A stretch of DNA of 57,958 nt from Chloroflexi bacterium HGW-Chloroflexi-9 (GTDB taxonomy: Bacteria > Chloroflexota > Dehalococcoidia > UBA2979): positions 1 through 57,958 of the forward strand of contig PHBR01000001.1 in assembly GCA_002840675.1 (NCBI GenBank). Direction: 5' to 3'. Positions 11,287-35,702 of the stretch are shown in pieces (the first letter of the stretch is position 1; every line of letters starts with the position of its first letter). Position numbers and translations under genes: made by a program. Under the pieces are notes generated by a model. That model made no database searches. It was not told the origin of the DNA and saw only the letters and a program-made list of their open reading frames with translations.

Positions 11287-11342
11287 CACTCCGCCATTCG
11301 TGTTCGCGTGCGCCTCGCCCATCGTCGTTCGCGGAGGGCGCG

Positions 11343-12014
11343 ATGACGACGACGGACCTGACGAACCGCTACCACCTCGACGCGTATATGGAGGGCGGCC
11401 CGGCACGATGGGTGCTCGACCGCGGGCGGCAGCCGGTGCGCGCGGTGATCCTCCACCACACCGGCGGCTGGTACGGCCCTCCGCTCGACGCCTCCGCGAC
11501 GGTCGCGGAAGAAATTGCCCAGACCGACGCGCTGGCACGCGACCACCGGGCGCGCTTCGGCATCGGGCCGGGCTACCACTACCTCGGTTTCCCTTCGGGG
11601 CGGCTGTACGCCGTGGGGAAGTGGGGGACGCAGCGCGCACACACCACGGGACGTGACCCGGCTACCGGCGAGCGGTGGAACGTGCAGGCAGTCGGGGTGT
11701 GCGCATTCGGCAACTTCGAGGCCGAACGGCCGGTCGCGGGCACCGTGTCCGCCGTCCGGGCCGCCCTCGACGAGGTGAACCGGATCGCCGGCCGTGTCCT
11801 CCCGATGATCCCGCACGGCGAGACGCCGTCGGCGGACGCGAGCGGTCGAGGCTTCGCGCAGGCGACGGCGTGTCCGGGCACCCATCTGCGCACCGCTCTC
11901 GCCTGGCCCGACGGGGGCGCGTCAGACGTGGACCTCGATGCGGTGCGTCGGGAGGTGCGCGCCGCGCAGGACCGGCTGGCGGAGGCGGCGACGCTGCTGG
12001 AGGCGCTTCGGTAG
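11343..12014 (+). CDS. N-acetylmuramoyl-L-alanine amidase (PGRP/Amidase_2-like) domain protein
   Basis: Internal ATG of tracked ORF 10080..12014. AVILHHTGG...GYHYL...CPG pattern typical of Amidase_2. The upstream part of the tracked ORF is an out-of-frame read of the amidase gene. Confidence 0.65.
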   Translation: MTTTDLTNRYHLDAYMEGGPARWVLDRGRQPVRAVILHHTGGWYGPPLDASATVAEEIAQTDALARDHRARFGIGPGYHYLGFPSGRLYAVGKWGTQRAHTTGRDPATGERWNVQAVGVCAFGNFEAERPVAGTVSAVRAALDEVNRIAGRVLPMIPHGETPSADASGRGFAQATACPGTHLRTALAWPDGGASDVDLDAVRREVRAAQDRLAEAATLLEALR

Positions 12015-12036
12015 CCCTGCCGCCTATGATGCGGCC

Positions 12037-13119: not shown

Positions 13120-13207
13120 CGCCCCGCCCCGAGGTGCGCGGTGCACCCCGGGGTGCTTCACGCCTGTGATAGCCTGTGGATATCTCCCCGGCGTGGAGCA
13201 CCGTGCC

Positions 13208-14413: not shown

Positions 14414-14508
14414 CCTCGCGCATCCGGTTCGCGGTGGCCGCACGCGGCTGCCTCCGCTAGTCTGCGCGGCGAGTACCGCCGAACGCGGGCCACGGGAGGG
14501 ATCGCTGC

Positions 14509-15240
14509 ATGCCGCTGGTTCTTGGGGTCACCGGTTCCATCGCCACCGGGAAGAGTTACCTGTGCACCTACCTGGTGGAGAAGTACGGCGCCATCCACGC
14601 GGACGCCGACAAGGTCGTCCACCGCATGTACGACCCGGGCAAGCCGGGCTTCGACCGCATCGTCGCTGAGTTCGGCGAGGAGGTCATCGGCGCGGACGGG
14701 TACATCGACCGCAAGTTGATCGGCTCGAAGGTGTTCGGCAACCAGGAGCGCATGAGCGCCCTCACGAGGGCGATCGGCGACATCGCCGGCGAGATGCACC
14801 ATGTCATCAACACCTGGCGCGCCGAACTCGGCCCCGACCAGATCGCGATCCTCGAGGCCGTGAACCTGATGGAGGCCGGGTACTCCGAGTGGTGCGACGC
14901 CACCTGGCTCGTGGGCGCGGACTACGAGGAGGCGCTGCCCCGGCTCATGACGCGCAACAACTTCTCAGAGGCGGAGGCACGCCAGCGCCTGGACGCGGCC
15001 CGGACGTGGCAGCAGCGCGAGCCGGCCTCCGACCGGCTGTTCATGAACAACACCACGCTCCCCGACCTGGAGCAGTCCGTCGACCGCTCGATCGCGGAGA
15101 CGCTCGCCATGTTCAAGGCGGGCACCCTGCCCCGCAGCCGCTGGCACGCCTGGTGGGAGGCCACCCGCGAGGAGCGCGAGGCGGCCCGGCGCGCCCGGGA
15201 GGCGAAGGCCGCGCAGGACGCGCAGAAGCAGCAGGGATAA
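14509..15240 (+). CDS. coaE: dephospho-CoA kinase with C-terminal extension
   Basis: P-loop LGVTGSIATGKS at the N-terminus. CoaE-like core followed by a charged tail. Confidence 0.85.
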   Translation: MPLVLGVTGSIATGKSYLCTYLVEKYGAIHADADKVVHRMYDPGKPGFDRIVAEFGEEVIGADGYIDRKLIGSKVFGNQERMSALTRAIGDIAGEMHHVINTWRAELGPDQIAILEAVNLMEAGYSEWCDATWLVGADYEEALPRLMTRNNFSEAEARQRLDAARTWQQREPASDRLFMNNTTLPDLEQSVDRSIAETLAMFKAGTLPRSRWHAWWEATREEREAARRAREAKAAQDAQKQQG

Positions 15241-15259
15241 CGTGCCGGGCCGGTGCGGG

Positions 15260-15287
15260 TTGCCTCGAACCGGCTCCGCGCTATGAT
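15260..15287 (+). promoter_or_regulatory. candidate sigma-A-type promoter for tRNA-Gly
   Basis: TTGCCT (15260-15265), 16-nt spacer, TATGAT (15282-15287), 9 nt before the tRNA 5' end. Confidence 0.4.
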
Positions 15288-15296
15288 CGAGGTCGT

Positions 15297-15371
15297 GCGG
15301 AAGTAGCTCAGTGGCAGAGCGCCTCCTTGCCAAGGAGGAGGTCGCGAGTTCGACCCTCGTCTTCCGCTCCA
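15297..15371 (+). tRNA. tRNA-Gly (anticodon GCC), CCA encoded
   Basis: Cloverleaf read by eye: acceptor GCGGAAG/CTTCCGC, anticodon stem CCTCC/GGAGG with loop TTGCCAA, T-loop TTCGACC. Confidence 0.9.
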
Positions 15372-15384
15372 TCGCACGAACGAC

Positions 15385-15412
15385 GGCCCGCCGAGAGGCG
15401 GGCCGTTTCGTT
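15385..15412. terminator. intrinsic terminator hairpin (possibly bidirectional)
   Basis: GGCCCGCC-GAGA-GGCGGGCC followed by GTTTCGTT. It lies between tRNA-Gly and the convergent gene ending at 15424. Confidence 0.6.
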
Positions 15413-15423
15413 GCCTGCCGCGG

Positions 15424-16374
15424 TCAACTCAACCGGCGCACCAACCCCTTCAGGTACGCCTCGACGCGGGGGCGGAGCACGTCATCCGTGAGGTCGGTGC
15501 GACCGGCATCGCTCCACTGGCCGAGGGCCGGCGGGCCGGTGTCCAGGGCGTCCACCAGGTCCCAGTACGGATGCTGGCTGACGCCTGCGGCGCTCTCGTA
15601 CGCCACGCGGAACTCCTCGGCGGCGTCGATGCCGAAGAGCGCGCTGAGGTTCACCCGGCAGTGCGCGACGTCATTGCCGGGTGGGCCGTTGCATGCGTTC
15701 ACCCAGTCCGTCACGCCACTGAGCCGGCCGTAGCGCCAGAGCGCGTTCGCGGGGTGGTAGTCGCGGTGAATGAGCGTAGGTGTCACGTCAGGCGGCGGCG
15801 CCGAGGCCAGCTCGTTCGCCCGCAGCCAGAGGTCCGGGCGCCTCGACCACGCGGGCACCTCGAACGGTCGGGCGCGGAACCACGGCCGGTACGCCGGGAG
15901 GCCTTCGACGGCACCGAGGGCGTGCAGCGCCGGCAGGAACGCCGCGAGCTGACGGAGGTATTCGGACAGGTCGCGCGGCCGGAGCTCGATGCGTCCGGCC
16001 ACGCGCGTCATGAGGACAGCCGGGACGTCGCACTCGCTACCCGTCACATCGGCCGCGAGGCATTCTGGCACCGGGAGCGTGCTGCCGCGCAGCGCGTCCA
16101 GCACGCGCACCTCGCGCTCGGCGATGTCTGGTTCCTCAGCGGTCAATTCAGTCCGGACGAAGCGCCGGAGGACGACGGCATCCAGGCCGTGCGGTGCTCC
16201 ACTCACGCCAAGAAGGTGTACCGCTGCGGACGTGCCACCGCGGAGCCGCCGGACGGAGGTGACGTGGGTGCCTGTGCCCAGCGTGCGCTCCACCCACGCC
16301 AGCGCCTCGGGCGGTGGGCGGCGGCGCAGGTGGGGTGGGAGTGTGGCCATCGGGCGGAGTCTACCGGTGACCAC
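15424..16374 (-). CDS. aminoglycoside phosphotransferase (APH) family protein
   Basis: Catalytic loop LIHRDYHPANALW and VTDWVNA motif. 316 aa. Confidence 0.75.
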   Translation of the reverse strand: MVTGRLRPMATLPPHLRRRPPPEALAWVERTLGTGTHVTSVRRLRGGTSAAVHLLGVSGAPHGLDAVVLRRFVRTELTAEEPDIAEREVRVLDALRGSTLPVPECLAADVTGSECDVPAVLMTRVAGRIELRPRDLSEYLRQLAAFLPALHALGAVEGLPAYRPWFRARPFEVPAWSRRPDLWLRANELASAPPPDVTPTLIHRDYHPANALWRYGRLSGVTDWVNACNGPPGNDVAHCRVNLSALFGIDAAEEFRVAYESAAGVSQHPYWDLVDALDTGPPALGQWSDAGRTDLTDDVLRPRVEAYLKGLVRRLS

Positions 16375-16454
16375 GGCCTGATCGCGTATCCTCGGGACGC
16401 CGGTGGTGCCCGGCGGTCAGGAAACGATCAGGACGGCAACGGACGGCGCAGACG

Positions 16455-18134
16455 GTGGAACACGACCTGTTGATCGAGTTCACCGCGCTGCTAGTGCTGG
16501 CTGCGGCTGCGGGCGCCCTCGGCACGCTGCTCCGGCAGCCGTTGATCGTCTCGTTCCTCGCGGTCGGTATCGCCGCCGGCCCGGCGGGTTTCGACCTGCT
16601 CAGCGAGAACGACGCATGGGAACTGCTCTCAACCGTCGGCATCGCCCTCCTGCTATTCGTGGTTGGCCTGCGGCTCGACACGGACGAGATCCGGGCGACC
16701 GGTCTCGTCGCGCTGATCACGGGCCTCGGGCAGGTTCTGTTCACCTCGGTGGTGGGGTTCGGGCTCACGCTCCTGCTGGGCTTCGGCGTGACGCCGGCGA
16801 TCTACGTGGCGATCGCGCTCACGTTCTCCAGCACGATCATCATCGTGAAACTGCTGTCCGATAAGCGTGAGATCGACTCGTTGCACGGGCGTATCGCCGT
16901 CGGGTTCCTGATCGTGCAGGACATCGTGGTCGTCCTCGTGATGATCGGCATCTCCGCCTTCGGCACGGGGGGCAACGCCGACCCCGTGCGTGAGGCGCTG
17001 GAGATCACCGCGAAGGGGCTCGCCTTTGTGGGCGGCATCTTCTTCGCGATGCGGTTCCTGATCCCGGTCGTGTTCCGGACGCTCGGCCGCTCGCCCGAAC
17101 TGCTCGTCCTCGGCGCCATCGCGTGGGCGATGATGCTGGCGGTCGGCGGCGAGGAACTCGGGTTCAGCCGCGAGGTCGGCGCGTTCCTCGCCGGCGTGTC
17201 ACTGGCCTCCACGCCGTTCCGCGACGCGCTGGGCGGGCGGCTGATGAGCCTGCGCGACTTCCTGCTGGTGTTCTTCTTCGTGGTGCTGGGGGCCGGCCTC
17301 GATCTCTCGCTCCTCGGGGAGCAGGTCGTGCCGGCGCTGGTGCTGTCCGTGTTCGTGCTGATCGGCAACCCGCTGATCGTGATGATCATCATGGGGGTGA
17401 TGGGCTACCGGAAGCGCACCAGCTTCCTGTCCGGCCTGGCGGTCGCGCAGATCAGCGAGTTCTCGCTGATCCTCGGTGCGCTCGGCGTGTCGGTCGGGCA
17501 CATCGAGCAGGACACGCTGGGCCTGATCACGCTCGTCGGGATCATCACGATCACGCTCTCGACCTACCTGATCATCTACTCCCACCAGCTCTACGACCGC
17601 ATCCAGCACCTGCTCTCCATCTTCGAGCGTCGCATCCCGTTCGCTGAGGAATCCACGCAGGTCGCCGACGTACGCATCGACTTCGTCGTGATCGGCCTCG
17701 GCCGCTTCGGTGGCGCGATCACGCAGCAGTTGCTGGACCAGGGCTATCGCGTCGAGGGGATCGACTTCGACCCGGAGGTCGTCCGCACCTGGTCGAAACG
17801 CGGCCTGGCGGCGTATTACGGTGACGTCGATGACCCGGAGATGGGCTCGATGATCCCGACACACGCACACTGGGTTGTCTCCACGCTCCCGCAGCCGGAC
17901 CTGGGCATGCACCTGCTCCACACGCTCCACGGCCGAGGCTTCGGCGGTCGCGTCGCCCTGACCGCGCACAACATGACGGCGGCGCAGACCCTCTACCACG
18001 CGGGGGCGAACCTGGTGCTGCTGCCGTTCCTGGACGCGGCCACGCAGGTGGTCACGTACCTCACCCACCCGGAGACGCAGCACCCGGCGCTTCCCAACCT
18101 TCCAGACAGCGACGACGCCTCGCTGGAGGGCTAA
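16455..18134 (+). CDS. cation:proton antiporter (CPA2/Kef-type) with C-terminal RCK/TrkA-N domain
   Basis: About 12 TM helices followed by the Rossmann motif VVIGLGRFGGAITQQL. Confidence 0.85.
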   Translation: MEHDLLIEFTALLVLAAAAGALGTLLRQPLIVSFLAVGIAAGPAGFDLLSENDAWELLSTVGIALLLFVVGLRLDTDEIRATGLVALITGLGQVLFTSVVGFGLTLLLGFGVTPAIYVAIALTFSSTIIIVKLLSDKREIDSLHGRIAVGFLIVQDIVVVLVMIGISAFGTGGNADPVREALEITAKGLAFVGGIFFAMRFLIPVVFRTLGRSPELLVLGAIAWAMMLAVGGEELGFSREVGAFLAGVSLASTPFRDALGGRLMSLRDFLLVFFFVVLGAGLDLSLLGEQVVPALVLSVFVLIGNPLIVMIIMGVMGYRKRTSFLSGLAVAQISEFSLILGALGVSVGHIEQDTLGLITLVGIITITLSTYLIIYSHQLYDRIQHLLSIFERRIPFAEESTQVADVRIDFVVIGLGRFGGAITQQLLDQGYRVEGIDFDPEVVRTWSKRGLAAYYGDVDDPEMGSMIPTHAHWVVSTLPQPDLGMHLLHTLHGRGFGGRVALTAHNMTAAQTLYHAGANLVLLPFLDAATQVVTYLTHPETQHPALPNLPDSDDASLEG

Positions 18135-18167
18135 CCGCCTCGCGCGCTACGATCAGGGCGCATCGCT

Positions 18168-18252
18168 GCCGGGGTGGCGAAATGGCAGACGCAGCGCACT
18201 CAAAATGCGCCGGGTAACTCCCGTGCGGGTTCGAGTCCCGCCCCCGGTACCA
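18168..18252 (+). tRNA. tRNA-Leu (anticodon CAA), long variable arm, CCA encoded
   Basis: Acceptor GCCGGGG/CCCCGGT, anticodon loop CTCAAAA, long extra arm, T-loop TTCGAGT. Confidence 0.9.
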
Positions 18253-18296
18253 GCCGACCACCGCGCCCGCCGGCGCCGCCCCACCGAGGTGCCCGC

Positions 18297-18677
18297 ATGA
18301 CCACCGACGGCGACACGGAGTTCGGCGGCTGGCGCGCCTGTGACGCCTGCGGTGAGGCCATCGCCTCCCCTGATGAGGCCGCACTCACCGTCCCCCCCGA
18401 ATTGATCGAGGAGCGCCGCGCAGGCATCGCCGAGCGTGCGCGCGCCCTCGCGGCCGGCGAGGAGGCCGCGCACGTCTCCACCGGGCTGATCCCGTGGGAC
18501 TGGGGCCACCGCGCCTGCTTCCCGCCGCGGGACGAGGCGTACTTCGTGGAGGGCGCACGCATCGCGACGATGCCGGGCATGCTGGCGCAGACGCTGGCGC
18601 TGATGGACCGCGAGTGGTTCCTGGAGACGGCGTGGGAGGACGCGGTGCGGCGCTTCTACCGCATCCCCTTCGAGTAG
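18297..18677 (+). CDS. hypothetical protein
   Basis: Start at an internal ATG (MTTDGDTEFGGWRACDACGEAI), because the tracked ORF start overlaps tRNA-Leu. No recognised domain. Confidence 0.45.
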   Translation: MTTDGDTEFGGWRACDACGEAIASPDEAALTVPPELIEERRAGIAERARALAAGEEAAHVSTGLIPWDWGHRACFPPRDEAYFVEGARIATMPGMLAQTLALMDREWFLETAWEDAVRRFYRIPFE

Positions 18678-18692
18678 CGCACCCCTCGCGGG

Positions 18693-19310
18693 CTACGGCT
18701 TGCCGATGCCCGCGCCCCCGGCGATGTTTGTGTAGCCGGAGATGAAGTTCTCCACCCCGTGCACCTCCGGGTCGAACGACTGCCGCTCCACGGTGCCGAG
18801 GTCGTTGCACAGCACGTGCAGCGACACGGAAGGCGTATCAGACACCGTCACCACCTGGTGGATGTCCTCGTCCGGGTGCTTGAGCCAGGTCAACTCGCCG
18901 AGGCGGATCGGGTCGGCGGAGAGCAGCTCCAGTTCCGCGTAGCCCTCGCGGTCGCCGCGGTCACGTCGGACATACTTCCGCTCCACCTGTGCGCCCTGCA
19001 CCAGGCCGACCCAGCCGTCCGTGAGGTGGTTGTGGACGCGCGTCATGGAGCCGGCGGGAACCACCATCGAGAAGATGCAGAGGTCCGGGTCCTGCGAGCG
19101 GTAGACGGCCCAGGAGGCCGTGGTGTCCGGGACGGGCTGCCGGAACGCCTCCGTGATCCAGGAGGGGTCGTACAGGAGCGCCTCGGTCGGCGCCTTGAGC
19201 GCGTCGAGCAGGCCCGACTTGCCACGCTCGCGGGCAACGATGTTGCGGAAGTCCTCGACGAACCGGCGCAGTACCGGCTCCACGGGCTCGATGTAGTAGG
19301 CGTCCGACAC
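18693..19310 (-). CDS. cupin-fold protein, cysteine dioxygenase type I-like
   Basis: 205 aa with cupin-like His-containing strands (TRVHNHLTDGWVGLV...HQV). Confidence 0.5.
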   Translation of the reverse strand: MSDAYYIEPVEPVLRRFVEDFRNIVARERGKSGLLDALKAPTEALLYDPSWITEAFRQPVPDTTASWAVYRSQDPDLCIFSMVVPAGSMTRVHNHLTDGWVGLVQGAQVERKYVRRDRGDREGYAELELLSADPIRLGELTWLKHPDEDIHQVVTVSDTPSVSLHVLCNDLGTVERQSFDPEVHGVENFISGYTNIAGGAGIGKP

Positions 19311-19401
19311 GATGAACCTCCGGGGCTGCGCGGGCGCGCTCCAGGGCGCGACCGGGCAAGGGTAGCGCGCGCATGGCAGGGTTGAGATGCTGAGGGCCCG
19401 C

Positions 19402-19475
19402 TGGCGGATGGTGTAGCGGTAGCACAGGGGACTTTGGATCCCTTAGCCCAGGTTCGAATCCTGGTCCGCCAGCCA
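19402..19475 (+). tRNA. tRNA-Gln (anticodon TTG), CCA encoded
   Basis: Acceptor TGGCGGA/TCCGCCA, anticodon loop CTTTGGA, T-loop TTCGAAT. Confidence 0.88.
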
Positions 19476-19526
19476 GTGACACTCTTGCCCGAGGCGGGCG
19501 GAGGCGTCACACTTCTGAGGTTCCGT

Positions 19527-19601
19527 TCCCCGATAGCTCAACGGTAGAGCAAACGACTGTTAATCGTTAGGTTCGTGGTTCGAATCCACGTCGGGGAGCC
19601 A
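19527..19601 (+). tRNA. tRNA-Asn (anticodon GTT), CCA encoded
   Basis: Acceptor TCCCCGA/TCGGGGA, anticodon loop CTGTTAA, T-loop TTCGAAT. Its 3' 42 nt are overlapped by the recombinase ORF on the opposite strand. Confidence 0.9.
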
Positions 19602-21185
19602 ACCCAATCGCCCAATCCGTCGCTCACCACCTGGGCCATCTGGCGAAGGCACTCCGGCATAGATCTCCAGCGTGATCTGCCGCTCTCCTACCTCGACACT
19701 CCGCAGCAGCAGCTTGAACAGCTCCTTGCGTTCGTGCGGGCGGAGATGCTCGTAGACCTCATCCACTCGCCGCAGAGCCTCACAGACCGTCGCTGACGTC
19801 GCCGTCGCGGCCTCGATCTCGGTGATCTGCCGGTCCAGGTCGGCGATGCCGCTGTTGAGGTCGTCACGACGTGTGGCAAGCGCCTCGATGCGGTCCTCTA
19901 CGAACTCCCGACCCACGGGCACCGCTGACCACTCGGTCAGCATCCGGTCCGCGTCGGCGGCGACCTTCGGGAGCTGCTTCACGAGCGCCTCGCGCTGCTT
20001 CCGCAGCTTCGGCAGTTCGCGGGACAACCGCCGGTTCGTCTCGGCGGTCAGCGCCTCCACCGTTGCCGGGTCGGCGGCAAGCGTGCGGAGGCGGTCGAGC
20101 ACCACCCCTTCGAGCCGATCCGCCGGCAGGCGCATCCCGCAGCGGTTGCGGCAGACGTAGTAGAAGTAGTCCTTGCCCTGCCGTCCCGTGCCGGAGCGCC
20201 CCTGCATCGTCCCGCCACATCGGCCGCAGCGTGTGAGTCCCCCACTTAGCACATAGACGTGGCTGACCTTCGTAGCCGCATTATGTCCAGTCCTCGCATT
20301 CGCAGACATGAGTGTCTGGACGCGTTCGAAGAGTTCGGTATCGATGATCCCCGGCCAGACGGCGTCCACCAACATGGGGCCATCGGGCCCCTGCGCCTCA
20401 CGCTTCCCGATGTACGCGACGTTCTTGAGCATCTGCTGGACGGTGGAGAACGTGAACTCGCCACCCGGGTGCTCCCTCCCCCGCCGTGACGTGAACGACT
20501 TTCCCCGGTACCCGGCCCGGTTCAAGTGCTCCATTGCCTCCTTTATCGAGCCGGCCTCCAGGTACGCCTCGTAGAGGAATGCGACGCCCTGCGCCTCGGC
20601 CTCGTTCGGGATCAGATAGCCCTTGCGATCCGGGTCGAGGTCGAAGCCGAAGAGCCGTCCGCCGTTCCAGAGGCCGCGCTCGGTGCGAGCGATTACGGCG
20701 TCGCGGGTGCGCTCTGATGTCTGCTCGCGCTCGAACTGCGCCAGCGCCATCAGGATGGTCATAATCAGCCGTCCATGCGGCGTCGTGGTGTCGAACTGCT
20801 CCTTGAGCGAGCAGAACTCGACCCCGTGCTCATCGAGCACTTCCAGCAGGTCGAGGAAGTCGCGCAGGCTCCGGCAGAGGCGGCTGAGTGCGGTGCAGAC
20901 GATCGTGTTGACCCGCCCCGACTCGATGTCTTCGAACAGCCGTTGGAACTCCGGGCTGCGTACGGAGTCCTTCCCCGAAACGCCCCGCAGCTCGTAGACC
21001 GCGGCTTCCTCCCACGGCTCGCCGATGGTGTCGCGCTTGTACGCGACCTGCTGGCGGAGCCGTTGGAGCTGGGTGACGAGGCTGCCCTCGGGGTTGGACG
21101 CCTGGATGTCCGTCGAGACGCGGACGACGAGGCCCACGCGCCGCACGTCTTCGCGCTGCTGACGCGCCACCTTCGCGGCTACCAC
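19560..21185 (-). CDS. large serine recombinase (integrase)
   Basis: N-terminal resolvase catalytic domain (VGLVVRVSTDIQ). Recombinase domain. Zinc-ribbon CGRCGG...YYVCRNRCG. Coiled-coil C-terminus. The stop codon lies in the tRNA-Asn anticodon loop. Confidence 0.9.
   Translation of the reverse strand: MVAAKVARQQREDVRRVGLVVRVSTDIQASNPEGSLVTQLQRLRQQVAYKRDTIGEPWEEAAVYELRGVSGKDSVRSPEFQRLFEDIESGRVNTIVCTALSRLCRSLRDFLDLLEVLDEHGVEFCSLKEQFDTTTPHGRLIMTILMALAQFEREQTSERTRDAVIARTERGLWNGGRLFGFDLDPDRKGYLIPNEAEAQGVAFLYEAYLEAGSIKEAMEHLNRAGYRGKSFTSRRGREHPGGEFTFSTVQQMLKNVAYIGKREAQGPDGPMLVDAVWPGIIDTELFERVQTLMSANARTGHNAATKVSHVYVLSGGLTRCGRCGGTMQGRSGTGRQGKDYFYYVCRNRCGMRLPADRLEGVVLDRLRTLAADPATVEALTAETNRRLSRELPKLRKQREALVKQLPKVAADADRMLTEWSAVPVGREFVEDRIEALATRRDDLNSGIADLDRQITEIEAATATSATVCEALRRVDEVYEHLRPHERKELFKLLLRSVEVGERQITLEIYAGVPSPDGPGGERRIGRLGWLPDVDSNHEPND
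19584..19601 (+). other. putative attL chromosomal half-site plus CCA core
   Basis: ATCCACGTCGGGGA-G-CCA at the tRNA-Asn 3' end. An inverted near-copy occurs at 23553-23566. Confidence 0.45.
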
Positions 21186-21370
21186 CGGGGCTGATCCGAA
21201 TCCATGTCGTGATGCACCGACATGTCGCGCCCGAAGTCAACGGTGGTGCGCGCCCTGAGCCAGCGCTCGATCCCGGTCGCAAGCAGCGCCTGTAGCTGCT
21301 GAGCGCGCTCGTCGCCCGAGGGATCGTCGACGAGTCGGACGGTGATCTTGGGCTGAGTGGGTTCGGCCAT
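21179..21370 (-). CDS. hypothetical small protein (63 aa), co-oriented with and overlapping the recombinase start
   Basis: 7-nt overlap with the recombinase start. The ATG lies 4 nt from the left inverted repeat. No recognised domain; possibly a directionality or regulatory factor. Confidence 0.45.
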   Translation of the reverse strand: MAEPTQPKITVRLVDDPSGDERAQQLQALLATGIERWLRARTTVDFGRDMSVHHDMDSDQPRW

Positions 21371-21374
21371 GCCT

Positions 21375-21409
21375 ACCCATACGCAGGTCCGCTGCGATCT
21401 GTCGGATCA
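21375..21409. repeat. left 35-bp inverted repeat (IR-L) flanking the sigma-like gene
   Basis: ACCCATACGCAGG-tccgctgc-GATCTGTCGGATCA. Both arms are identical to the reverse complement of 22068-22102; only the central 8 nt differ. Confidence 0.85.
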
Positions 21410-21488
21410 CCGACGCGTCGCGACCTCCGGCGACCTCCGGGGGATCTCCGCCATCTGACCGGAGGTCGAAGACCGATAACTGGAGTGG

Positions 21489-22070
21489 GTGCAATTTTAC
21501 GCGCCCACCCCATCCGATGGCTTTGCGCCCTGGGAACTGGACACCGCGACAGCGGCCGTCCGGAGCTACCTCCGCGCTTCCCGGCGTCGTCCCGACCCAG
21601 ACGTCGAGAAAGGCCTAATCCAGGAGTGCCTGCTCCAGTGGTGGATCAAACGTGACCGGTACGACTCCGCCCGAGGGGCGAACCGCCGGACCTTCATGAA
21701 CCGGGTCTGTGAGCGCCACCTCCGCAGCCTCGCCCGTGCGGAGCGCGCGCTGAAGAGAGGCGGCGGCAAGCAGACGCTTTCGCTCGACAGGCCGTTGGGC
21801 GAGGACGGTGACTCACTGGCTGAGCTGCTCTCGGACGGCGATCCACGTCCGGATGAACTCGCCGAGCATGACGACCTCCTGGCGCGGCTCGCGCGTGTCC
21901 GCGAACGACTACTGGGGCGCGAACGACGTGTCTTCGAGGCGCTCGCCGACGATCGCCCGCGGGCGAGGCTTGCCCGTGATCTGGGCATCCACCGCAGCAC
22001 GCTCTACGCCGACATCGAGCGCATCCGGGAGGTCGCTCGCGACGAGGGGCTCGAAGACTTCCTCCGCTGA
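21489..22070 (+). CDS. sigma-70 family (ECF-like) / HTH regulatory protein
   Basis: 193 aa. The central region resembles sigma region 2. The C-terminal RLARDLGIHRSTLYADIERIRE resembles a region-4 HTH. GTG start. The stop TGA is the first 3 nt of IR-R. Confidence 0.6.
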   Translation: MQFYAPTPSDGFAPWELDTATAAVRSYLRASRRRPDPDVEKGLIQECLLQWWIKRDRYDSARGANRRTFMNRVCERHLRSLARAERALKRGGGKQTLSLDRPLGEDGDSLAELLSDGDPRPDELAEHDDLLARLARVRERLLGRERRVFEALADDRPRARLARDLGIHRSTLYADIERIREVARDEGLEDFLR

Positions 22071-22102
22071 TCCGACAGATCCGATCCGTCCTGCGTATGG
22101 GT
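22068..22102. repeat. right 35-bp inverted repeat (IR-R) flanking the sigma-like gene
   Basis: TGATCCGACAGATC-cgatccgt-CCTGCGTATGGGT. Inverted copy of IR-L (13-nt and 14-nt arms identical). Confidence 0.85.
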
Positions 22103-22106
22103 GCTC

Positions 22107-22388
22107 ATGGACACTCAAACGCTTCGCTTCATCTTTCCACCCGGAGCTGACCCGGAGGTGGTCGAGGACGACTTCGGCCTCGCCCTCTTCGCGGTCAGCT
22201 GTATCTACGGACGCCCGGGCGTCCGCCTTGCCGCCCGTTACCTCGTCAGCCCGGATGGGCGCCGCTGCGTCGCCTCGGTTGCGGGTACGGCGGGCGAGGC
22301 GGTGCTGCGCATCTTCACCGGGCTCTGCGCCTCCCGGCTCGGTGAGGACGGGTTCCGCATTGAGCGCCTCGGCGGTGCAGCATGCTGA
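22107..22388 (+). CDS. hypothetical protein (93 aa)
   Basis: The ATG lies 4 nt after IR-R, mirroring the ORF at 21179..21370. Its end overlaps the Prim-Pol start (ATGCTGA). Confidence 0.45.
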   Translation: MDTQTLRFIFPPGADPEVVEDDFGLALFAVSCIYGRPGVRLAARYLVSPDGRRCVASVAGTAGEAVLRIFTGLCASRLGEDGFRIERLGGAAC

Positions 22389-23161
22389 GCCCCGACGCCC
22401 ACAGCCTCGGGGACGCGGCGGTCGAACTCGCGCTCGCGGGCTGGTCGGTCTTCCCGTGCCACCCCACCGGGCCGCGCGCCAAGTCGCCGATCTCCGCGCT
22501 CGTGCCGCACGGCCACCTGAACGCCACCCGCGACCCGGAGGTCATCCAGCGGTGGTGGCGTGAATGCCCCAACGCCATGATCGGCGGCGCTGTCCCGGCG
22601 TCGTTCATCGTGATCGACATCGACCCGCGGAACGGGGGCAGCCTCGATGTGCTCGAGGCCCTCGTCGGTGCGCTGACCGAGACGCTCACCGTCTGGAGCG
22701 GTCGTGAGGACCGCGGCCGCCACTTCTACTACCTGCGCCCGGGTGGAGCGTTCACGTCGACCCGTCTGCCCGATGGCATCGACCTCAAAGTGCACGGCTA
22801 CTGCATCCTGCCGCCGAGCATCCATCCGGCGACGGGCCGCCCATACCGCTGGGAACTGCGCGAGCCCGCCCCGCTTCCCGGCAGCCTCCTCAGCCTCCTG
22901 CGCCCGCTCCCATCGCCTCCGCGTGTGACCTCAGGCCTCGGGAGCGTCAGCGCTGATGCCCTCGTGCGCTTCGTCGCGGGACTGCAGCCCGGCGAGCGGA
23001 ACCGAGGCACCTACTGGGCCGCGTGCCGCGCCGCGGACGACGGCGTGCTCGATGGCCTCGCAGCCGACCTCGTCGCTGCCGCCATGCAGACCGGCCTGCC
23101 GGAGCGCGAGGCCATTCGCATCGTCCAGTCCGCGCGGCGCAGTGCGGGGATCCGCTCATGA
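22382..23161 (+). CDS. bifunctional DNA primase/polymerase (Prim-Pol) N-terminal domain protein
   Basis: AGWSVFPCHP...IIDIDPRNGG (read as FIVIDIDPRNGG)...GRHFYY...DLKVHGYCILPPSIHPATGRPYRW matches the Prim-Pol domain pattern of plasmids and integrative elements. Confidence 0.85.
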   Translation: MLSPDAHSLGDAAVELALAGWSVFPCHPTGPRAKSPISALVPHGHLNATRDPEVIQRWWRECPNAMIGGAVPASFIVIDIDPRNGGSLDVLEALVGALTETLTVWSGREDRGRHFYYLRPGGAFTSTRLPDGIDLKVHGYCILPPSIHPATGRPYRWELREPAPLPGSLLSLLRPLPSPPRVTSGLGSVSADALVRFVAGLQPGERNRGTYWAACRAADDGVLDGLAADLVAAAMQTGLPEREAIRIVQSARRSAGIRS

Positions 23162-23304
23162 CCACCGTGCCCACCGTCCCGCCCGTCTCTGACCAGCCGC
23201 ACGACCGCTGCTCGGAGGATGTCACCCCCTGGTCTGCAGCATCGTCTCGCTTCATACCGCCTCCACTTCCTTCGTTCACTCGGAACCTACTGCGGTACCT
23301 GTGA
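23158..23304 (+). CDS. possible small ORF (48 aa) coupled to the Prim-Pol stop
   Basis: The ATG overlaps the Prim-Pol TGA (ATGA). No recognisable domain. Confidence 0.25.
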   Translation: MTTVPTVPPVSDQPHDRCSEDVTPWSAASSRFIPPPLPSFTRNLLRYL

Positions 23305-23549
23305 CGCTAGGCGCGGGCGCAGACCCACCCGAGTGGCGTTTGACCGGACGATTAAAGGACTAAGGTCCTGAGACCGGTCCGTCGCGATCTCGGACGGGAG
23401 ATCGTCCCTTGAGTGCGGCTGATAGGCGCGCGGCAGCGCGTGACGGCGGTCTCGTTCGCCACCGTGATCATGCCGCCGGCCCGCTCAGACCCGCCGTGTG
23501 CGGAGGAGGCGTAGCGTGGCTACCCGCACACCCGAGATAGCCCGATGGA

Positions 23550-23566
23550 CCATCCCCGAAGTGGAT
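23550..23566 (+). other. putative attR CCA core plus chromosomal half-site
   Basis: CCA-TCCCCGAAGTGGAT. The reverse complement ATCCACTTCGGGGA matches 19584-19597 at 13 of 14 positions. Confidence 0.45.
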
Positions 23567-23589
23567 GCAGCTGGACTCGTAACGGGGTG

Positions 23590-23782
23590 TGGCGGTCGCG
23601 GCCAGGCGTTCGTTCATGAGGAACGCCGCGAGCAGTTGCTCAGCAGCGCGCCGACCGCCGGGAAGGGATCGTTGGCCTGGATCGCCGGATCAGGGAGATC
23701 GAGATGACCGGAGCCCGGTCTACGAGCACCTGAAGCCGCACGAGCGCAAGGAGTTGTTCAGACTGCTCCTGCGGAGCGTCTG
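23590..23782 (+). pseudogene. frameshifted C-terminal remnant of a paralogous large serine recombinase
   Basis: In two frames it reads GQAFVHEERREQLL / GIVGLDRRIREIEMT / VYEHLKPHERKELFRLLLRSV. This parallels GREFVEDRIEAL / SGIADLDRQITEIEAAT / VYEHLRPHERKELFKLLLRSV of the intact gene. 23718-23780 matches the complement of 19695-19757 at about 52 of 63 nt. Confidence 0.65.
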
Positions 23783-23847
23783 GGACGGGTTCCTGCCGGT
23801 GCGCCAGCGTGACGTCGGCCTCTGCAGGTTTCGACAGCGCTGCTCGG

Positions 23848-24405
23848 TCAGCCGCTGTACGGCCAGGGGATGTCCACGGAGGTTAGCGGACGGTCGCTCG
23901 TCGCCACCCGGCCATCCAGGACGTGGCCGACCACAAGGGTGTGGTCACCGACATCGACGAACTGCTCCGCCTCGCAGTCGAGCCACATCAGTGCCCCGTC
24001 GAGGACCGGGCACCCGCGCGTGGTGAGCGTGTGGTCGACAGCGTCGAGCTTCTCGTACGTGCTCGATACCAGCGGCTGACCCCGCCCCTTGATCTTGGCG
24101 GCACGGTGCGGCTGCACGAAGTGTTGCGCCAGCGCCATCCCTGCGCCGCTCGCGTGGGCAAGGAGGTTCACGGTGAACGCGTTGTTCTGACGGATGCTCG
24201 CCAGGCTGTACGAGTCGTTCTCGAACGACACCGCGACCCGGTGCGGCTGGAAGGCCACCTGCATCACCCAGTCCGCGATCATCCCGTTGGGTTCGCCCCC
24301 GCGGGTGGTGCCCACGATGTAGACCCCGTACGGCATCTCCTCCACCGCGTCGGCGATCGAGCCATGCTCGGCACGCAATGCGCTGTCGGTGTTCTGGCTG
24401 ACCAT
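23848..24405 (-). CDS. flavin reductase-like FMN-binding protein
   Basis: GVYIVGTTRGGEPNGMIADWVMQVAFQPHRVAVSF is typical of the HpaC/flavin reductase domain family. Confidence 0.8.
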   Translation of the reverse strand: MVSQNTDSALRAEHGSIADAVEEMPYGVYIVGTTRGGEPNGMIADWVMQVAFQPHRVAVSFENDSYSLASIRQNNAFTVNLLAHASGAGMALAQHFVQPHRAAKIKGRGQPLVSSTYEKLDAVDHTLTTRGCPVLDGALMWLDCEAEQFVDVGDHTLVVGHVLDGRVATSDRPLTSVDIPWPYSG

Positions 24406-24860
24406 TCCTTGCTCCCTTCCATGTGGATTTCCATGCGGCGTCCAACCTCGCCGGTCCGTGTCCGCCTGTGGCCGTCACGCCCAAGAGGACATTCGCGACT
24501 TCAGTATCCGGGGCGCAGTGCGGTCGAGGCAGGGCACAAGGACCCCCAGCGCGGGACCAAACGTCCCTTCTGCGAAACACCCGCGACCCCGCCGGATGTA
24601 GTCTGAGCGGTGATAGGACGACCATCGCAGCCGCCGCGCGCTGCTCCGACAGCCGCGGGCGGCGGCACATCTGTCGGCAGATCACCGATATCTAAGCCGT
24701 GACGGCAACGTCAGCGCTCCGACGCTACCCCTCAGGGGCCGGGGCAGACTCGATATACTCCTCACCTGGTCTCGATCATTGTCTCTACGAATAAGGACGG
24801 GCGGCTCGACTGTGTCAGCCGCGAGAAGAGGCCGACACGTCCGCGGAGACGAGGAGCGTC

Positions 24861-25430
24861 GTGACCATTTCTGACAGCGTGCATGCCTTGTGTAGTCGGC
24901 CCTCCGGCCGTGTCTTGCTTGCGTTCATGCTCGCCGCACTGGTGCTGGCTCCGGCGTGCGCTGACAACGGATCGGAAGACGCCCGGTTCACGGATCCATT
25001 CGCCTACTGCACGGAGATCCAGGACATCGATGCACCCGACGAGCGATACGTCGGAGAAGCGGTCCCTGATGCTGTCGTTGAAGGCATCCGCATCGCCACC
25101 GGCGCTTCCGCGGACGCCCCGGTGGAGTTCTTCAGGGACGGCACGTCCTGGCGTTGCATGGACGGCGAGGTGTACGCGTGCACCGTCGGCGCCAATCTGC
25201 CATGCCAGGCCAAGGCGGACGTGAGCGAGGATCCCTCGCCGTCCATGAGCGAGTTCTGCGTCGCGAATCCGGATGCCGAAGCAGTCCCCGCCGCCGTCAC
25301 GGGTCGCGAGACGGTGTTCGCATGGGCCTGCGACGGTAGTAAGGCAGTCGTCGAGCGGCAGGTGTTCCAGGTAGACGGCCGAGGCTTCATCGCAGAGATC
25401 TGGTACCGGCTCGAAACCCCTGGCGGCTAG
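24861..25430 (+). CDS. hypothetical lipoprotein
   Basis: Signal peptide with lipobox (LVLAPACADNGS). Several Cys residues. No recognised domain. Confidence 0.5.
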   Translation: MTISDSVHALCSRPSGRVLLAFMLAALVLAPACADNGSEDARFTDPFAYCTEIQDIDAPDERYVGEAVPDAVVEGIRIATGASADAPVEFFRDGTSWRCMDGEVYACTVGANLPCQAKADVSEDPSPSMSEFCVANPDAEAVPAAVTGRETVFAWACDGSKAVVERQVFQVDGRGFIAEIWYRLETPGG

Positions 25431-25472
25431 CCGGTCGAGCCGGGGCAAGGTTCTGATGAGTCGGAGGGCTGG

Positions 25473-25910
25473 ATGCGACGGAAGTTGTTCGGTGTCTCTC
25501 TCGCGATCCTGACTCTCGTTGGTGCCGGTTGCACCGAGAGTGCGGGAGAGGACAAGGTGCGCGCCTCCGCGATCGTGTGCAGCGCGGCCTACCGAGTGTC
25601 ACAGGCGGAGCCGTTGACAGAGGTTGATTCGCTGCGGCTAGAGGACACCGACGCCGTGCAGTCGCTGCCGTACATCTACCTGGAACTGCACGCCGAATAC
25701 GCCGATGGCCGGTCTGATGGTGAGCGTGCGCTGCGCGTGTGGGTGACCCGCACCGCGGAAGCAGAGCCACTGGTCACGCACCTCTATCAGATGCCCGAGG
25801 GCGAAGGGCCACAGAACCAGTTCCTGGGTGACCACGGGTTCACCGGGCTGATGTACGCCTACGACCCGGTCAGCGGTGCGGAACTGCAGTACTGGTGCAC
25901 CGCGGAATAG
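25473..25910 (+). CDS. hypothetical lipoprotein
   Basis: Signal peptide with lipobox (LVGAGCTES). No recognised domain. Confidence 0.5.
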   Translation: MRRKLFGVSLAILTLVGAGCTESAGEDKVRASAIVCSAAYRVSQAEPLTEVDSLRLEDTDAVQSLPYIYLELHAEYADGRSDGERALRVWVTRTAEAEPLVTHLYQMPEGEGPQNQFLGDHGFTGLMYAYDPVSGAELQYWCTAE

Positions 25911-25955
25911 CTCGCAGAGCGTGTTGATGAAGCACGCCCCGTGCAACACGGTCAC

Positions 25956-26078
25956 CTGCAGAGGCGGTGTCGTCGCGGCGTGCGGGTGGCTGTCGATGAC
26001 CTCGGCACGGGCTACTTGAGCCTCAGCTACCTCCAACGACTCCCAGTTGCCGTGCCTAAGATCGGTCGGCCTCGGGTG
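25956..26078 (+). pseudogene. orphan EAL-domain fragment
   Basis: LQRRCRRGVRVAVDDLGTGYLSLSYLQRLPVAVPKIGRPRV matches the conserved DDFGTGYSSLSYL..LP...KID block of EAL domains. There is no upstream or downstream continuation. Confidence 0.6.
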
Positions 26079-26081
26079 CCA

Positions 26082-26483
26082 TCAAGCAGTTCGGGCCCGA
26101 ACCGACGTGAGCTCTCCATATCCAGCGGCGAGGCTCACCAGTGCTACCGCGGCGTGCATGACATGCACCGGTGTATTTGCAGGAGCGTCCGGCATCGTCC
26201 CGAAGAAGTCGGGACTGGCGACGTTCAAGACGAAGCCCAGTACGAACAGAGCTCCGTAGCCGAAGATGGCGTAGGCACGCGCGCTGCCGCGGAGCGCCAG
26301 CACGATGAGGATCGCGAGCACCCCGCCGAGAGCGTGCACTACACCGTGCATCGCGTTCATCGACATGAACGCGTGCTCTGGTAGTCCGACCAGCGATGTG
26401 TCGCGGACCGCGAGCAGCCCCATGATGATCATGGCGACACCACCACCGACCACCCACACACCGAGGGTTGCGTGTTTCGACAT
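26082..26483 (-). CDS. small integral membrane protein (DUF4383-like)
   Basis: Internal ATG preceded by AAGGAA. Four hydrophobic segments, with His-rich loops (MHGVVHALGG, VHVMHAAV). Confidence 0.6.
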   Translation of the reverse strand: MSKHATLGVWVVGGGVAMIIMGLLAVRDTSLVGLPEHAFMSMNAMHGVVHALGGVLAILIVLALRGSARAYAIFGYGALFVLGFVLNVASPDFFGTMPDAPANTPVHVMHAAVALVSLAAGYGELTSVRARTA

Positions 26484-26891
26484 GATTATGTTCCTTGCTT
26501 CAGGGCCGTTGCTCCCGGTGGACCGGTGACCTGTGCCCGCCACTCCGAGGATGCGCGGAGATCGGCAGGCAATGCGGATGCCTGACGCGGCGCATACCCA
26601 GCGTATAGCAGTTGTTATTTGAAACGCTGAGATGGCCACCGGCCCGCCGCCTCGTTCGCAGCTTGCCTGCCCCACCGCGCGCCCTCCGGTCGCCACATGG
26701 GCGCGGGATGAGGCAGGCGGGCATCTGCTGCCGCTACGGGGCCGCCGCGTCACTGCGAGCGATGCCATTCATCCAGCGGGGAGACGCTGCGTCGTACCGT
26801 CCCACCCACAGCGGTTCGAGTACGGTAGTGCTGGGCAATCTGTCCGCTGAATACACAATGGACCGGCCCTCAGACCGGGGGGACAACTCAT

Positions 26892-27266
26892 ATGACTGAA
26901 CACACCTACCTCCGCACACACGATCTCGCGGCGGAACATCTCCTGATCGACCTCGGTGAAGCCGTCACTGAGTTACACGGCCTGGTGCCAGATAGCCAGG
27001 ACCGGAGTGCCGTGACGCTGGTGAAGCAGGGTGGGCTCAGCGTCGTGCTCACGCACCTGCACGCCGGCGGAACCCTCGCCGAGCACTCGGCGCCGGGTGC
27101 GACCACTGTGCAGGTCCTGGATGGACACGTCCGCATCCGTGTGGGCGACGACACGATCGAGGTGCCAGCCGGGCGACTCGTTGCCTTCGACGCCAGGGTG
27201 CGGCACAGCGTCGAGGCGCTTGAGGACTCCGTCCTGCTGCTGACACTGGCGCAAGCCCCGGCCTGA
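26892..27266 (+). CDS. cupin domain protein
   Basis: 124 aa. LTHLHAGGTLAEHSAPGATTVQVLDGHVRI...RHSVEA is a cupin two-motif pattern. Confidence 0.7.
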   Translation: MTEHTYLRTHDLAAEHLLIDLGEAVTELHGLVPDSQDRSAVTLVKQGGLSVVLTHLHAGGTLAEHSAPGATTVQVLDGHVRIRVGDDTIEVPAGRLVAFDARVRHSVEALEDSVLLLTLAQAPA

Positions 27267-27290
27267 GGGCGAGCCCGAGGAGGCCACGCG

Positions 27291-27677
27291 ATGAACGCCT
27301 CGTTGAACCGGCTCGCGGCGGTGCTTGCGTTCCTGCTCGGTGCGTTCTCGATCGTCGCGGGCCGGCAGGCCGCGGCTGGCTGAGATCCCGGGTATTCCGT
27401 CCTTGGCTGGCTGCCGGTCTACAACCTCGCATTGGGTGTGTGGACTGTCCTTGTCCCCGCGATCATCATCTGGCGAAGCAGCCGGTTCGCGGTGCCGGTG
27501 TCGGTCGGGACGCTCGCTACGCACGCCGCCGTGCTCGTGCTGCTGCTATCGGGCGCGATTGGCGACCCGGCGAAGCAGAGTCTGCTTGCCATGACCTTCC
27601 GGGTCGGGGTCTGGCTGGCCGTCCTCGGGCTGCTCGCGATCCAGTCGCGAAGGCGAGCGACTTCGGCTGGACGCTGA
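27291..27677 (+). pseudogene. small membrane protein interrupted by an in-frame TGA (27381-27383)
   Basis: A single frame reads MNASLNRLAAVLAFLLGAFSIVAGRQAAAG-stop-DPGYSVLGWLPVYNLALGVWTVLVPAIIIW..., with hydrophobic helices on both sides of the stop. Confidence 0.55.
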
Positions 27678-27752
27678 GCCCCCAAACGGTTGCTGACGAT
27701 CCCGGTCTGCCGGCTCATCCGGCGCGTAACCGGCCGAGGTCGGGCGCAGAGG

Positions 27753-28127
27753 TCAGCGCGGCTCGAACAGTTCCACCGCGTTCCCGGACGGGTCATCGGC
27801 CAGGATCTGCTTCCCGCCGTTCCCGACGACAATGTCGTTCCGGAACGGCACGCCGGCGCTGCGGAGGTGGTCCACCACCTGCTCGAGGTCACCCACCTCT
27901 ACCTGGATGCGGTTCCATCCTCCGGGTGCCGGGACGCTGCCATCCGGCATCGATTGGCCGGCGCCTCCGCCCCCGCCGGGCCGGTTGAGCAGGAGCCGCA
28001 GGTCGCCGTGCGAGAGCATGGCGAAACCCGGCCCCGGGTGCTGTTCGACCTTGAATCCCAGGTGATCCCGGTAGAAGGAAATCGCTGCATCCACATCGTT
28101 GACGATGTACCGAACACTCGCGGGCAT
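27753..28127 (-). CDS. VOC/glyoxalase-bleomycin resistance family protein
   Basis: Internal ATG (MPASVRYIVNDVDAAISFYRDHLGF). Typical VOC beta-alpha-beta-beta-beta module. Confidence 0.8.
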   Translation of the reverse strand: MPASVRYIVNDVDAAISFYRDHLGFKVEQHPGPGFAMLSHGDLRLLLNRPGGGGGAGQSMPDGSVPAPGGWNRIQVEVGDLEQVVDHLRSAGVPFRNDIVVGNGGKQILADDPSGNAVELFEPR

Positions 28128-28252
28128 TGCCAGCCTCCCCCAGCGCCGCCCATGCCGGTCGGCCGCTCCGCGGAACGTACCTGTTTCGGCACGGAACGCC
28201 ACACGGGTGGCGGCCAGCGAGCGCCGGATTCGCACTCCGTGTCAGGTGCGGC

Positions 28253-35644: not shown

Positions 35645-35702
35645 AAGTCGCGGTCATGGATCGCGCCCGCCCTCATCATGAGGAAGGTAACTGGAGGCAG
35701 CG

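Follow-up and report, generated by a model that had tools for sequence, protein, structure and literature searches.

The closest described counterparts of the element examined here are the genomic islands found at the ssrA gene of Dehalococcoides (ssrA-GIs). These islands carry a 540-amino-acid (aa) serine recombinase, DsiB, which lies on the reverse strand beside the left attachment site (attL) and always overlaps the 3' end of ssrA by ~70 bp, they contain ParB-domain, Mom-like methylase and primase-like genes, and tandem and decayed islands are found downstream of the target (McMurdie et al. 2011, PMC3146451). They have been proposed to be integrative and mobilizable but not conjugative, and were described without replication genes, while the CcrAB system of the staphylococcal cassette chromosome mec (SCCmec), in which a serine recombinase inserts an island that does not replicate at the 3' end of one essential gene, was cited as a homologous model (PMC3146451). 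Here we analyse a stretch of 57,958 nucleotides (nt) from Chloroflexi bacterium HGW-Chloroflexi-9 (hereafter the window; contig PHBR01000001.1), in which an element encoding a serine recombinase occupies the 3' end of a tRNA-Asn gene. A first-pass annotation, made from the letters of the window, had described this element as a complete, minimal mobile unit of 3.95 kb with its right end at 23552. Our analysis suggests a different picture, and we consider it likely that what remains in the window is the left portion of a stranded and degraded member of a family of 7-10 kb elements, that 23552 is not a true boundary, and that the DNA to the right of 23205 is a mosaic.

The likeness between the window element and the ssrA-GIs, which occur in the same bacterial class, is above all one of layout. 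The recombinase of the window (541 aa, with an intact open reading frame, ORF; 21185..19560, reverse strand) lies by attL, overlaps its target by 42 nt and has its stop codon inside it, the relatives that are full-size also encode ParB-domain/DNA-methylase and primase-like proteins, and the region downstream of the target is likewise a hot spot of tandem and decayed islands. The two groups differ in target (tRNA-Asn, not ssrA) and in the length of the core (4-9 bp in the window family vs a 20-bp direct repeat in ssrA-GIs). They also differ in gene content, given that the window family possesses a module of a primase-polymerase (Prim-Pol) and a sigma-factor-like protein and lacks reductive dehalogenase cargo, and that ssrA-GIs encode DsiA, a second small serine recombinase, where the window has a 63-aa ORF; neither ORF calls nor Pfam revealed a second Resolvase-domain ORF between 19602 and 23600. 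On these grounds we regard the window family as belonging to the same kind of element as the ssrA-GIs, with the window copy being a degraded representative.

Several other systems resemble the window element in part. Large serine integrases bind as dimers to the attachment sites of element (attP) and host (attB), bring them together in synapsis and exchange strands at a central dinucleotide. Those of phages (A118/LI, TP901-1, SPbeta SprA, Bxb1 and phiC31) share with the window recombinase a three-domain architecture and the serine of the RVSTDIQ motif, and a further likeness is that attP, as reconstructed from one relative (L035, below), is dyad-symmetric and has very short identity with attB. 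Phage large serine integrases usually target protein-coding genes, which are not restored, whereas the window family targets a tRNA end, restores the tRNA and has attP within the integrase ORF. SCCmec differs in employing two recombinases, in its target (rlmH/orfX), in its hosts and in the lack of a Prim-Pol. Satellites resembling phage-inducible chromosomal islands (PICIs) and integrative mobilizable elements also combine an integrase, a regulator and primase-type replication in a small island that has neither structural nor conjugation genes. However, the window copy has no terminase, capsid-redirecting or helper-sensing genes, with a small terminase being present in a single relative (L005) only, and PICIs typically use tyrosine integrases.

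The target gene, tRNA-Asn(GTT), lies at 19527..19601 on the forward strand (ARAGORN; Rfam, 71.6 bits), next to a tRNA-Gln at 19402-19475 (ARAGORN, Rfam). The adjoining recombinase matches the Pfam families Resolvase (PF00239, E=2e-30, residues 21-171), Recombinase (PF07508, E=1e-11) and Zn_ribbon_recom (PF13408, E=8.5e-10), as well as the PHROG integrase family phrog_95 (E=2e-107), and the catalytic serine motif RVSTDIQ is visible in its translation. Matches in PDB comprise the TP901-1, A118 and SPbeta integrases (the C-terminal domains of A118 and SPbeta, with TP901-1 among the catalytic-domain matches), while residues 385-467 give weak coiled-coil-type Pfam matches below the cut-offs (KIF21A, Prefoldin). 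We recovered 479 homologues at E<=1e-20 from Dehalococcoidia/Chloroflexota assemblies, the closest being 71-89% identical, but no relatives of this recombinase family in viral_contigs. Read in reverse complement, the tRNA 3' end supplies the final 13 codons of the window ORF (WLPDVDSNHEPND, followed by the stop). This makes attP internal to the recombinase ORF, where it falls on the codons for W-L-P, whose sequence, TGGCTCCCC, corresponds to GGGGAGCCA of the tRNA on the opposite strand. The same nine bases of this core are found in L031, which encodes a 50%-identical homologue whose ORF is not interrupted at tRNA-Asn.

Insertion by a serine recombinase at the 3' end of tRNA-Asn is well supported, because the element-side arm is conserved and the recombinase gene adjoins and enters the tRNA in relatives. 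In the window, attL spans 19577..19625 (forward strand), with its host-side B arm in the T-arm and acceptor of the tRNA up to 19596 and the core, AGCC, at 19597-19600. The element-side P' arm is AACCCAATCGCCCAATCC, with its CCAATCG motif 3 nt away from the core; this motif is kept across all integrated relatives and scars, and comparison of the family yields GCCA-[AC][CT]C-CAAT[CG]GCCC as consensus of the arm. A gene for a recombinase of ~540 aa that adjoins tRNA-Asn, with an ORF that enters it by 42 nt, is seen in the window and in L004, L005/6, L007/8, L009, L010, L025, L033-L036 and L038, so that the placement of a serine-recombinase element at the extreme 3' end of tRNA-Asn, as first proposed, is borne out by the window and at least 10 related loci.

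The position of the crossover can be read from relatives in which both junctions, or an unoccupied site, are available. L035 is a 144-kb contig in which both element ends are present, its recombinase is 80% identical to that of the window and its P' arm is the same. On the far side, L035 1-2528 consists of host DNA with homology to 34915-37456 of the window, and the right attachment site (attR) sits 24 nt past the stop codon of a host gene. Written in the orientation of the tRNA, L035 attR is ...GGCCGATTGGTTT-AGCC-TCCTGACC... (its B' side also written AGCC-TCCTGACCAGACGG...) and attL is ...GTCGGGG-AGCC-AACCCAATCGCCC (also written ...CCACGTCGGGG-AGCC-AACCCAATCGCCCGCG...), AGCC being the sole sequence that they have in common. 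Furthermore, a more distant remnant, L027, has an attR of ...CTCCGAAGAGCCG/CTCTCACGC followed by a hairpin, and the unoccupied site L022 reads GGGGAGCCA/TCTCACGCC, again followed by a hairpin, a comparison that narrows the core to GAGCC. Since the L035 junctions share only AGCC, and L027 and L022 agree, strand exchange is placed inside AGCC (19597-19600), 1-4 nt inside the CCA end, and the crossover dinucleotide itself would be one of those within this tetranucleotide. Consequently, the element resupplies the terminal bases of the tRNA, and the last 2-5 nt of the window tRNA-Asn (within GAGCCA) now come from the element. The left junction of the first-pass annotation is therefore real and correct to within 1-4 nt, but the core lies at AGCC and not, as had been claimed, exactly after CCA.

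From the two L035 junctions we reconstructed an attP of CCGATTGG-TTT-AGCC-AAC-CCAATCGC, the arms of which (CGATTGG-TTT / AAC-CCAATCG) match at 13/16 positions, whereas the arms of the reconstructed attB match at 6/13 positions only. Short dyad-symmetric attachment sites that share only a central crossover are thus found in L035, and the window yields attL only.

At its other end, the window element stops well short of its relatives. Full-size members of the family (L004, L010, L035) total ~7.3-10 kb, and after the Prim-Pol gene they carry a gene of 448 aa, followed by one of two gene sets: either a 141-aa gene, an HTH_23 gene and a conserved non-coding block, or a ParB-methylase, RAMA and small genes. 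In three independent comparisons, with L004, L010 and L035, homology to the window ends at 23204/23205, leaving a stub of ~15 codons of the 448-aa gene (23158..23205, forward strand) as the point of truncation; the remainder of this gene and all of the distal family genes are missing from the window copy. A complete unit of 3.95 kb is difficult to reconcile with relatives of 7-10 kb, and the full gene set of the family is not present between attachment sites in the window.

The truncation point is followed by orphan DNA (23206..23590), within which lies the attR proposed by the first-pass annotation (23537-23566). This segment has no significant blastn or tblastx match to any of the 41 loci that we fetched, no similarity to the recombinase (family hidden Markov model, HMM; local alignment against shuffles) and no Rfam family, and the RNA fold of 23205-23590 is not unusual. 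To its right we find inverted fragments of recombinase genes. Remnant A (23591..23780, forward strand) corresponds to aa ~420-497 of the 3' region with a 42-nt internal deletion, begins 25 nt to the right of the proposed host arm (B'), and is 92-95% identical to L032/L035 vs 83% to the recombinase gene of the window itself. Remnant B (24588..24716, forward strand; aa ~423-465) is weak, being recognised from 42 nt at 88% identity (E=2e-8) and a tblastn match of E=0.03, and was undetected by the family HMM. With inverted recombinase fragments following the proposed B', what had been taken for host flank is itself element debris.

Comparison with the closest genome leads to a different delimitation of the variable DNA. 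L011, at 93% nucleotide identity and with a flank protein 99% identical, can be aligned with the window over 11061-19754 (92.9%) and then again from 28253 (85.6%), where an HD-domain gene has its stop. What it retains in between is tRNA-Asn, an attL/recombinase scar of ~150 nt and ~185 nt more, ahead of the HD-domain gene. The variable segment is consequently 19755..28252, the stretch that L011 lacks, and not 19602-23552. A 204-aa neighbour in L007 was considered as the same flank protein and rejected, given an identity of 24%. Remnants A and B, which have the same orientation, bracket a flavin reductase gene (24405..23848, reverse strand). This gene is not a native neighbour of tRNA-Asn, as its closest homologues occur in unrelated contexts, 100 kb from tRNA-Asn in the L022/L040 genome, and as a route to an empty site these homologues yielded none.

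The repeat on which the shorter delimitation was founded does exist: ATCCACGTCGGGGA at 19584-19597 recurs in inverted orientation, at 13/14 positions, as TCCCCGAAGTGGAT at 23553-23566, with CCA at 23550-23552. For this single pre-chosen 14-mer, inverted and within 12 kb, a match of this quality arises in 14/2000 dinucleotide shuffles (p=0.007; the expectation for the whole window is 0.10). When any 14-mer of the tRNA 3' half and adjoining arm is considered in both orientations (96 probes), at least one match is obtained in 99/400 shuffles (0.25). The match does not extend, in that neighbouring 14-mers fail, and an Rfam-type search found no tRNA-like relic at 23400-23700, even at E<=10. The 14-mer repeat is real, but it is weak evidence on its own.

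Nor does the sequence around the repeat have the form of an attachment site of this family. The candidate P arm, GCCCGAT-GG-A-CCA, contains the motif as CGAT-GG, without one T, at 1 nt from the centre vs 3 nt in the family, and its centre is ACCA, not AGCC; the corresponding arm of L035, CGATTGG-TTT-AGCC, is correctly spaced. A properly spaced P arm beside a host B' is thus not found at 23537-23566, and the window offers no other candidate. The dyad symmetry that had been noted for the joined ends of the element is indeed as weak as was claimed, with the motif sitting 1 nt from the centre. A near-perfect palindromic attB, which the annotation also predicted, finds no parallel in the verified and empty sites, where B is mirrored at only 2-8 of 12-14 positions. 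Moreover, the predicted junction of an empty site, CACGTCGGGGAGCCATCCCCGA (...GTCGGGGAGCCA/TCCCCGAAGTGG...), had 0 exact matches in genome_contigs (596 Gb) and metagenome_contigs, and that of a circular form, CCCGATGGACCAACCCAATCG (...CCCGATGGACC/AACCCAATCG...), had 0 in viral_contigs, where a degenerate attP pattern derived from L035 was also without a match. We compared the DNA downstream of tRNA-Asn in 13 relatives, which are other species among which B' is not conserved. It consists of a P'-arm scar (L011, L013, L015), P'/recombinase remnants (L012, L023, L027) or unrelated DNA, and unoccupied loci have other downstream sequence, none of it like TCCCCGAAGTGGATGCAGC / TCCCCGA[AC]GTGGAT, an outcome that the annotation had itself named as speaking against its model. 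When further copies of GGGGAGCCA or of CCAATCG were used to look for an attR in the window and relatives, only attL sites came up, and since loosened searches find chance matches about every 10-20 kb, a motif of the CCAATCG type carries little weight.

Some observations nevertheless weigh against a stranded element whose right end has been lost. As a single probe, the 13/14 match has a low probability, CCA precedes that match, and CCCGATGG just upstream loosely resembles the P-arm motif CGATTGG; in verified or empty sites, the B' arm often has TCC as its first bases (L035, L010, L020), as the candidate does; and the attR of L010 shows that small deletions can damage a genuine attR. The far ends of the family vary, so that the unmatched 23206-23552 could still be element DNA, L035 offers the only cleanly verified attR in the close clade, and no same-species strain with a truly empty site was found, L011 being itself scarred. 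The match after CCA and the upstream half-site resemblance, together with the intact recombinase ORF and the 100% identity of the locus in a second sample (L002), are also what can be said for a complete and still excisable element at 19602-23552, with attR at 23537-23566 and a near-palindromic attB. We hold this to be very unlikely. The P-arm motif is a T short and too close to a centre of the wrong sequence, while a recombinase as similar as that of L035, with the same P' arm, has a well-spaced and symmetric P arm. The homology of relatives ends at 23205 and the 347 nt preceding the supposed right end are unlike any element end, an inverted recombinase fragment lies 25 nt into the supposed host flank, and known B' arms mirror B poorly. 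Additionally, the predicted junctions are absent from all three collections and the family-wise probability of a chance match is 0.25.

Two further explanations would retain a historical meaning for the site. It might once have been the real right junction, and have decayed through later deletions in the P arm and loss of the right half of the element; this shares the resemblances above, including the TCC at the start of B', and is consistent with the similar damage to the attR region of L010, which keeps GAGGCT...GGCCGGG without the 9-nt motif of L035. Yet ~5 nt would have to have been lost in three gaps within 15 nt while the adjacent B' stayed at 13/14, the natural B' would have to have been far more symmetric than any observed elsewhere, and the DNA on either side would remain unexplained or element-derived, such that we regard a decayed attR as unlikely. 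Alternatively, 23533-23566 could be a scrap of a reversed junction between recombinase end and tRNA end, produced by the rearrangements behind remnants A and B: by eye, the forward strand, GAGATAGCCCGAT..GGACCA-TCCCCGAAGTGGAT, resembles the reverse complement of attL, CGGATTGGGCGATTGGGTTGGC-TCCCCGACGTGGAT, and two more inverted recombinase fragments occur within 1.2 kb. An inverted partial copy of attL seems highly improbable to us, however, given that the junction lies to the left and not to the right of remnant A, which is the wrong order for a single inverted duplicate, that the similarity stops short of further tRNA or recombinase coding sequence, and that the alignments are no better than those of shuffles. 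Most likely, the 13/14 inverted match is due to chance or is a fragment of the mosaic, and is not a working attR.

We therefore favour a stranded left part, for which the following scheme may be proposed. The family would consist of integrative, self-replicating, non-conjugative elements of Dehalococcoidia that target the 3' end of tRNA-Asn. Their recombinase would bind a dyad-symmetric attP (CGATTGG-NNN-AGCC-NNN-CCAATCG) located within its own reading frame, and strand exchange within AGCC would restore the last bases of the tRNA, the integrated recombinase ORF then continuing into the tRNA. What survives in the window is attL together with the genes for the recombinase, the 63-aa protein and the sigma-like regulator, and the operon of Prim-Pol, while everything from codon ~15 of the post-Prim-Pol gene on, the true attR included, would have been lost or replaced at 23205, and this would have left the element stranded. 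The DNA to its right would be a mosaic, probably assembled over time from orphan DNA, the two recombinase fragments in inverted orientation and, as far as 28252, accessory genes. As no attR can be identified and half of its genes are gone, the window copy has presumably lost its mobility, its intact recombinase ORF notwithstanding.

The genes that the first-pass annotation placed within the element, namely the serine recombinase, small ORFs, a sigma-like regulator and a Prim-Pol, were recovered by ORF calls, Pfam and PHROG, and its observation that capsid and conjugation genes are absent, leaving an integration module and a replication module, also holds. The 63-aa ORF (21179..21370, reverse strand) overlaps the start of the recombinase and is kept upstream of it across the family, with counterparts of 60-71 aa being called in L003, L005, L009, L010, L031 and L032; it has neither a Pfam nor a PHROG match, and may be considered a candidate accessory or directionality factor. 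The sigma-factor-like regulator (21489..22070, forward strand) resembles factors of the extracytoplasmic function (ECF) type, scoring 22.0 bits against Pfam Sigma70_ECF (cut-off 21.1), with Sigma70_r2 at E=1.4e-4 and a PHROG sigma factor at E=1.3e-9. The replication operon (22101..23161, forward strand) comprises a 95-aa ORF (22101-22388; 93-95 aa in the family) and the Prim-Pol gene (22382-23161; Pfam E=1.4e-31, with matches to PHROG primase/polymerase families), and homologues of the two occur in the same order in L003, L004, L010 and L034-L036.

The regulator gene lies between two copies of a promoter-like element, which are mutually inverted and face the recombinase operon on one side and the Prim-Pol operon on the other. 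Copy 1 (21375..21408, reverse strand; GATCCGACAGATC-N8-CCTGCGTATGGGT; inverted repeat I3) ends 4 nt ahead of the start codon (ATG) of the 63-aa/recombinase operon and is conserved in place in L003, L004, L032, L035 and L036. Copy 2 (22069..22102, forward strand) likewise stops 4 nt short of an ATG, that of the 95-aa/Prim-Pol operon at 22108, and is conserved in place in L003, L004, L005, L010, L035 and L036. Judging from their sequence and position, the pair may drive leaderless transcription from a shared promoter, possibly recognised by the element's own sigma-like protein.

Several features of the relatives deserve mention in their own right. A conserved and apparently non-coding block of ~450 nt (GCGGATACGATCCGCCGAAACCCGTACAC...GGGGGCCTCCCCC), which the window lacks, is located near the far end of L035 (2664-3117), L004 (2040-2496) and L005 (2979-3426), and may represent an origin or an RNA. 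Past its methylase and RAMA genes, L005 carries a small-terminase gene (152-643; PHROG terminase small subunit, E=3e-32), which hints that some members of the family are phage satellites or parts of prophages. In the attR region of L010 (~1655-1690), the GAGGCT...GGCCGGG flanks are as in L035 but the 9-nt motif AAACCAATC is lacking, which suggests a small deletion, of a kind that would leave the element stranded. In L020, 40 nt from the 3' end of tRNA-Asn are directly repeated (9315-9353 vs 9641-9715) ~290 nt downstream of the tRNA, at a locus that otherwise looks empty, and this suggests the footprint expected of a different, tyrosine-integrase-type element on the same tRNA. In L003, a 609-aa recombinase with 89% identity is accompanied by the same GGGGAGCCA core and P' arm (3044-3066) without an adjoining tRNA. 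We considered L003 as the attP form and rejected it, as the downstream DNA is unlike any element end and the arm lacks the motif; the other side of its core, CCGGAGTGGTT, is unrelated to element ends, and on sequence grounds L003 is probably an insertion at a secondary site that has the same 9-nt core. L032 (protein P0006) was likewise rejected as the attP form of the window clade, its P arm being of the L027/L031 type and its P' arm of the window type; such hybrid arms possibly stem from tandem accretion, that is, from insertion beside a resident island.

Many homologues of ~600 aa (P0006, P0052, P0093, P0100 and others) run past WLP into a conserved tail of ~75 aa (...VSQSV...LPSL...RAELARRMGVSRARVTQVLG) which ends in a helix-turn-helix. 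The tail is encoded at 2640-2868 in L032 (P0006) and at 11612-11842 in L031 (P0100), where methylase and RAMA genes come after an unsplit long recombinase on a contig of 84 kb, and it persists as remnants at 9718-9840 in L027, located at the attR, and at 7446-7562 in L023. Applied to all loci, an HMM of the C-terminal tail detected remnants in L023 and L027 only, and none in the window, L004, L007 or L010. The tail opens with VSQSV, and the codons for it (GTGTCCCAGAGCGTG) overlie the half-site motif that forms the P' arm of L012 and L027, so that they would also act as the second half-site of attP. With attP embedded in the ORF at W-L-P, the C-terminus of the recombinase could be set by the state of the element, with a 10-aa tail encoded by the tRNA upon integration and the read-through tail of ~75 aa otherwise, although we consider this switch doubtful. 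McMurdie et al. noted that the integrase of ssrA-GIs might be complete on the circular form only, and raised a state-dependent C-terminus for DsiB, as an idea only (PMC3146451). If true, a C-terminal switch could set the direction of recombination, or the expression of the recombinase, without a separate directionality factor.

For the annotation of this locus, our results replace a neat mobile unit of 3.95 kb with a stranded remnant and a variable segment that reaches to ~28.2 kb. It is uncommon for a serine integrase to target a genuine tRNA gene and repair it, and for the choice of a tRNA end the family supplies a defined core (AGCC within GGGGAGCCA), a symmetric reconstructed attP and many natural attL sites and scars. 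The design of the ssrA islands, in which the integrase ORF runs across attP and attL, is thereby seen at another RNA gene besides ssrA and in further Dehalococcoidia, and consequently the idea of a state-dependent recombinase C-terminus becomes testable with paired sequences.

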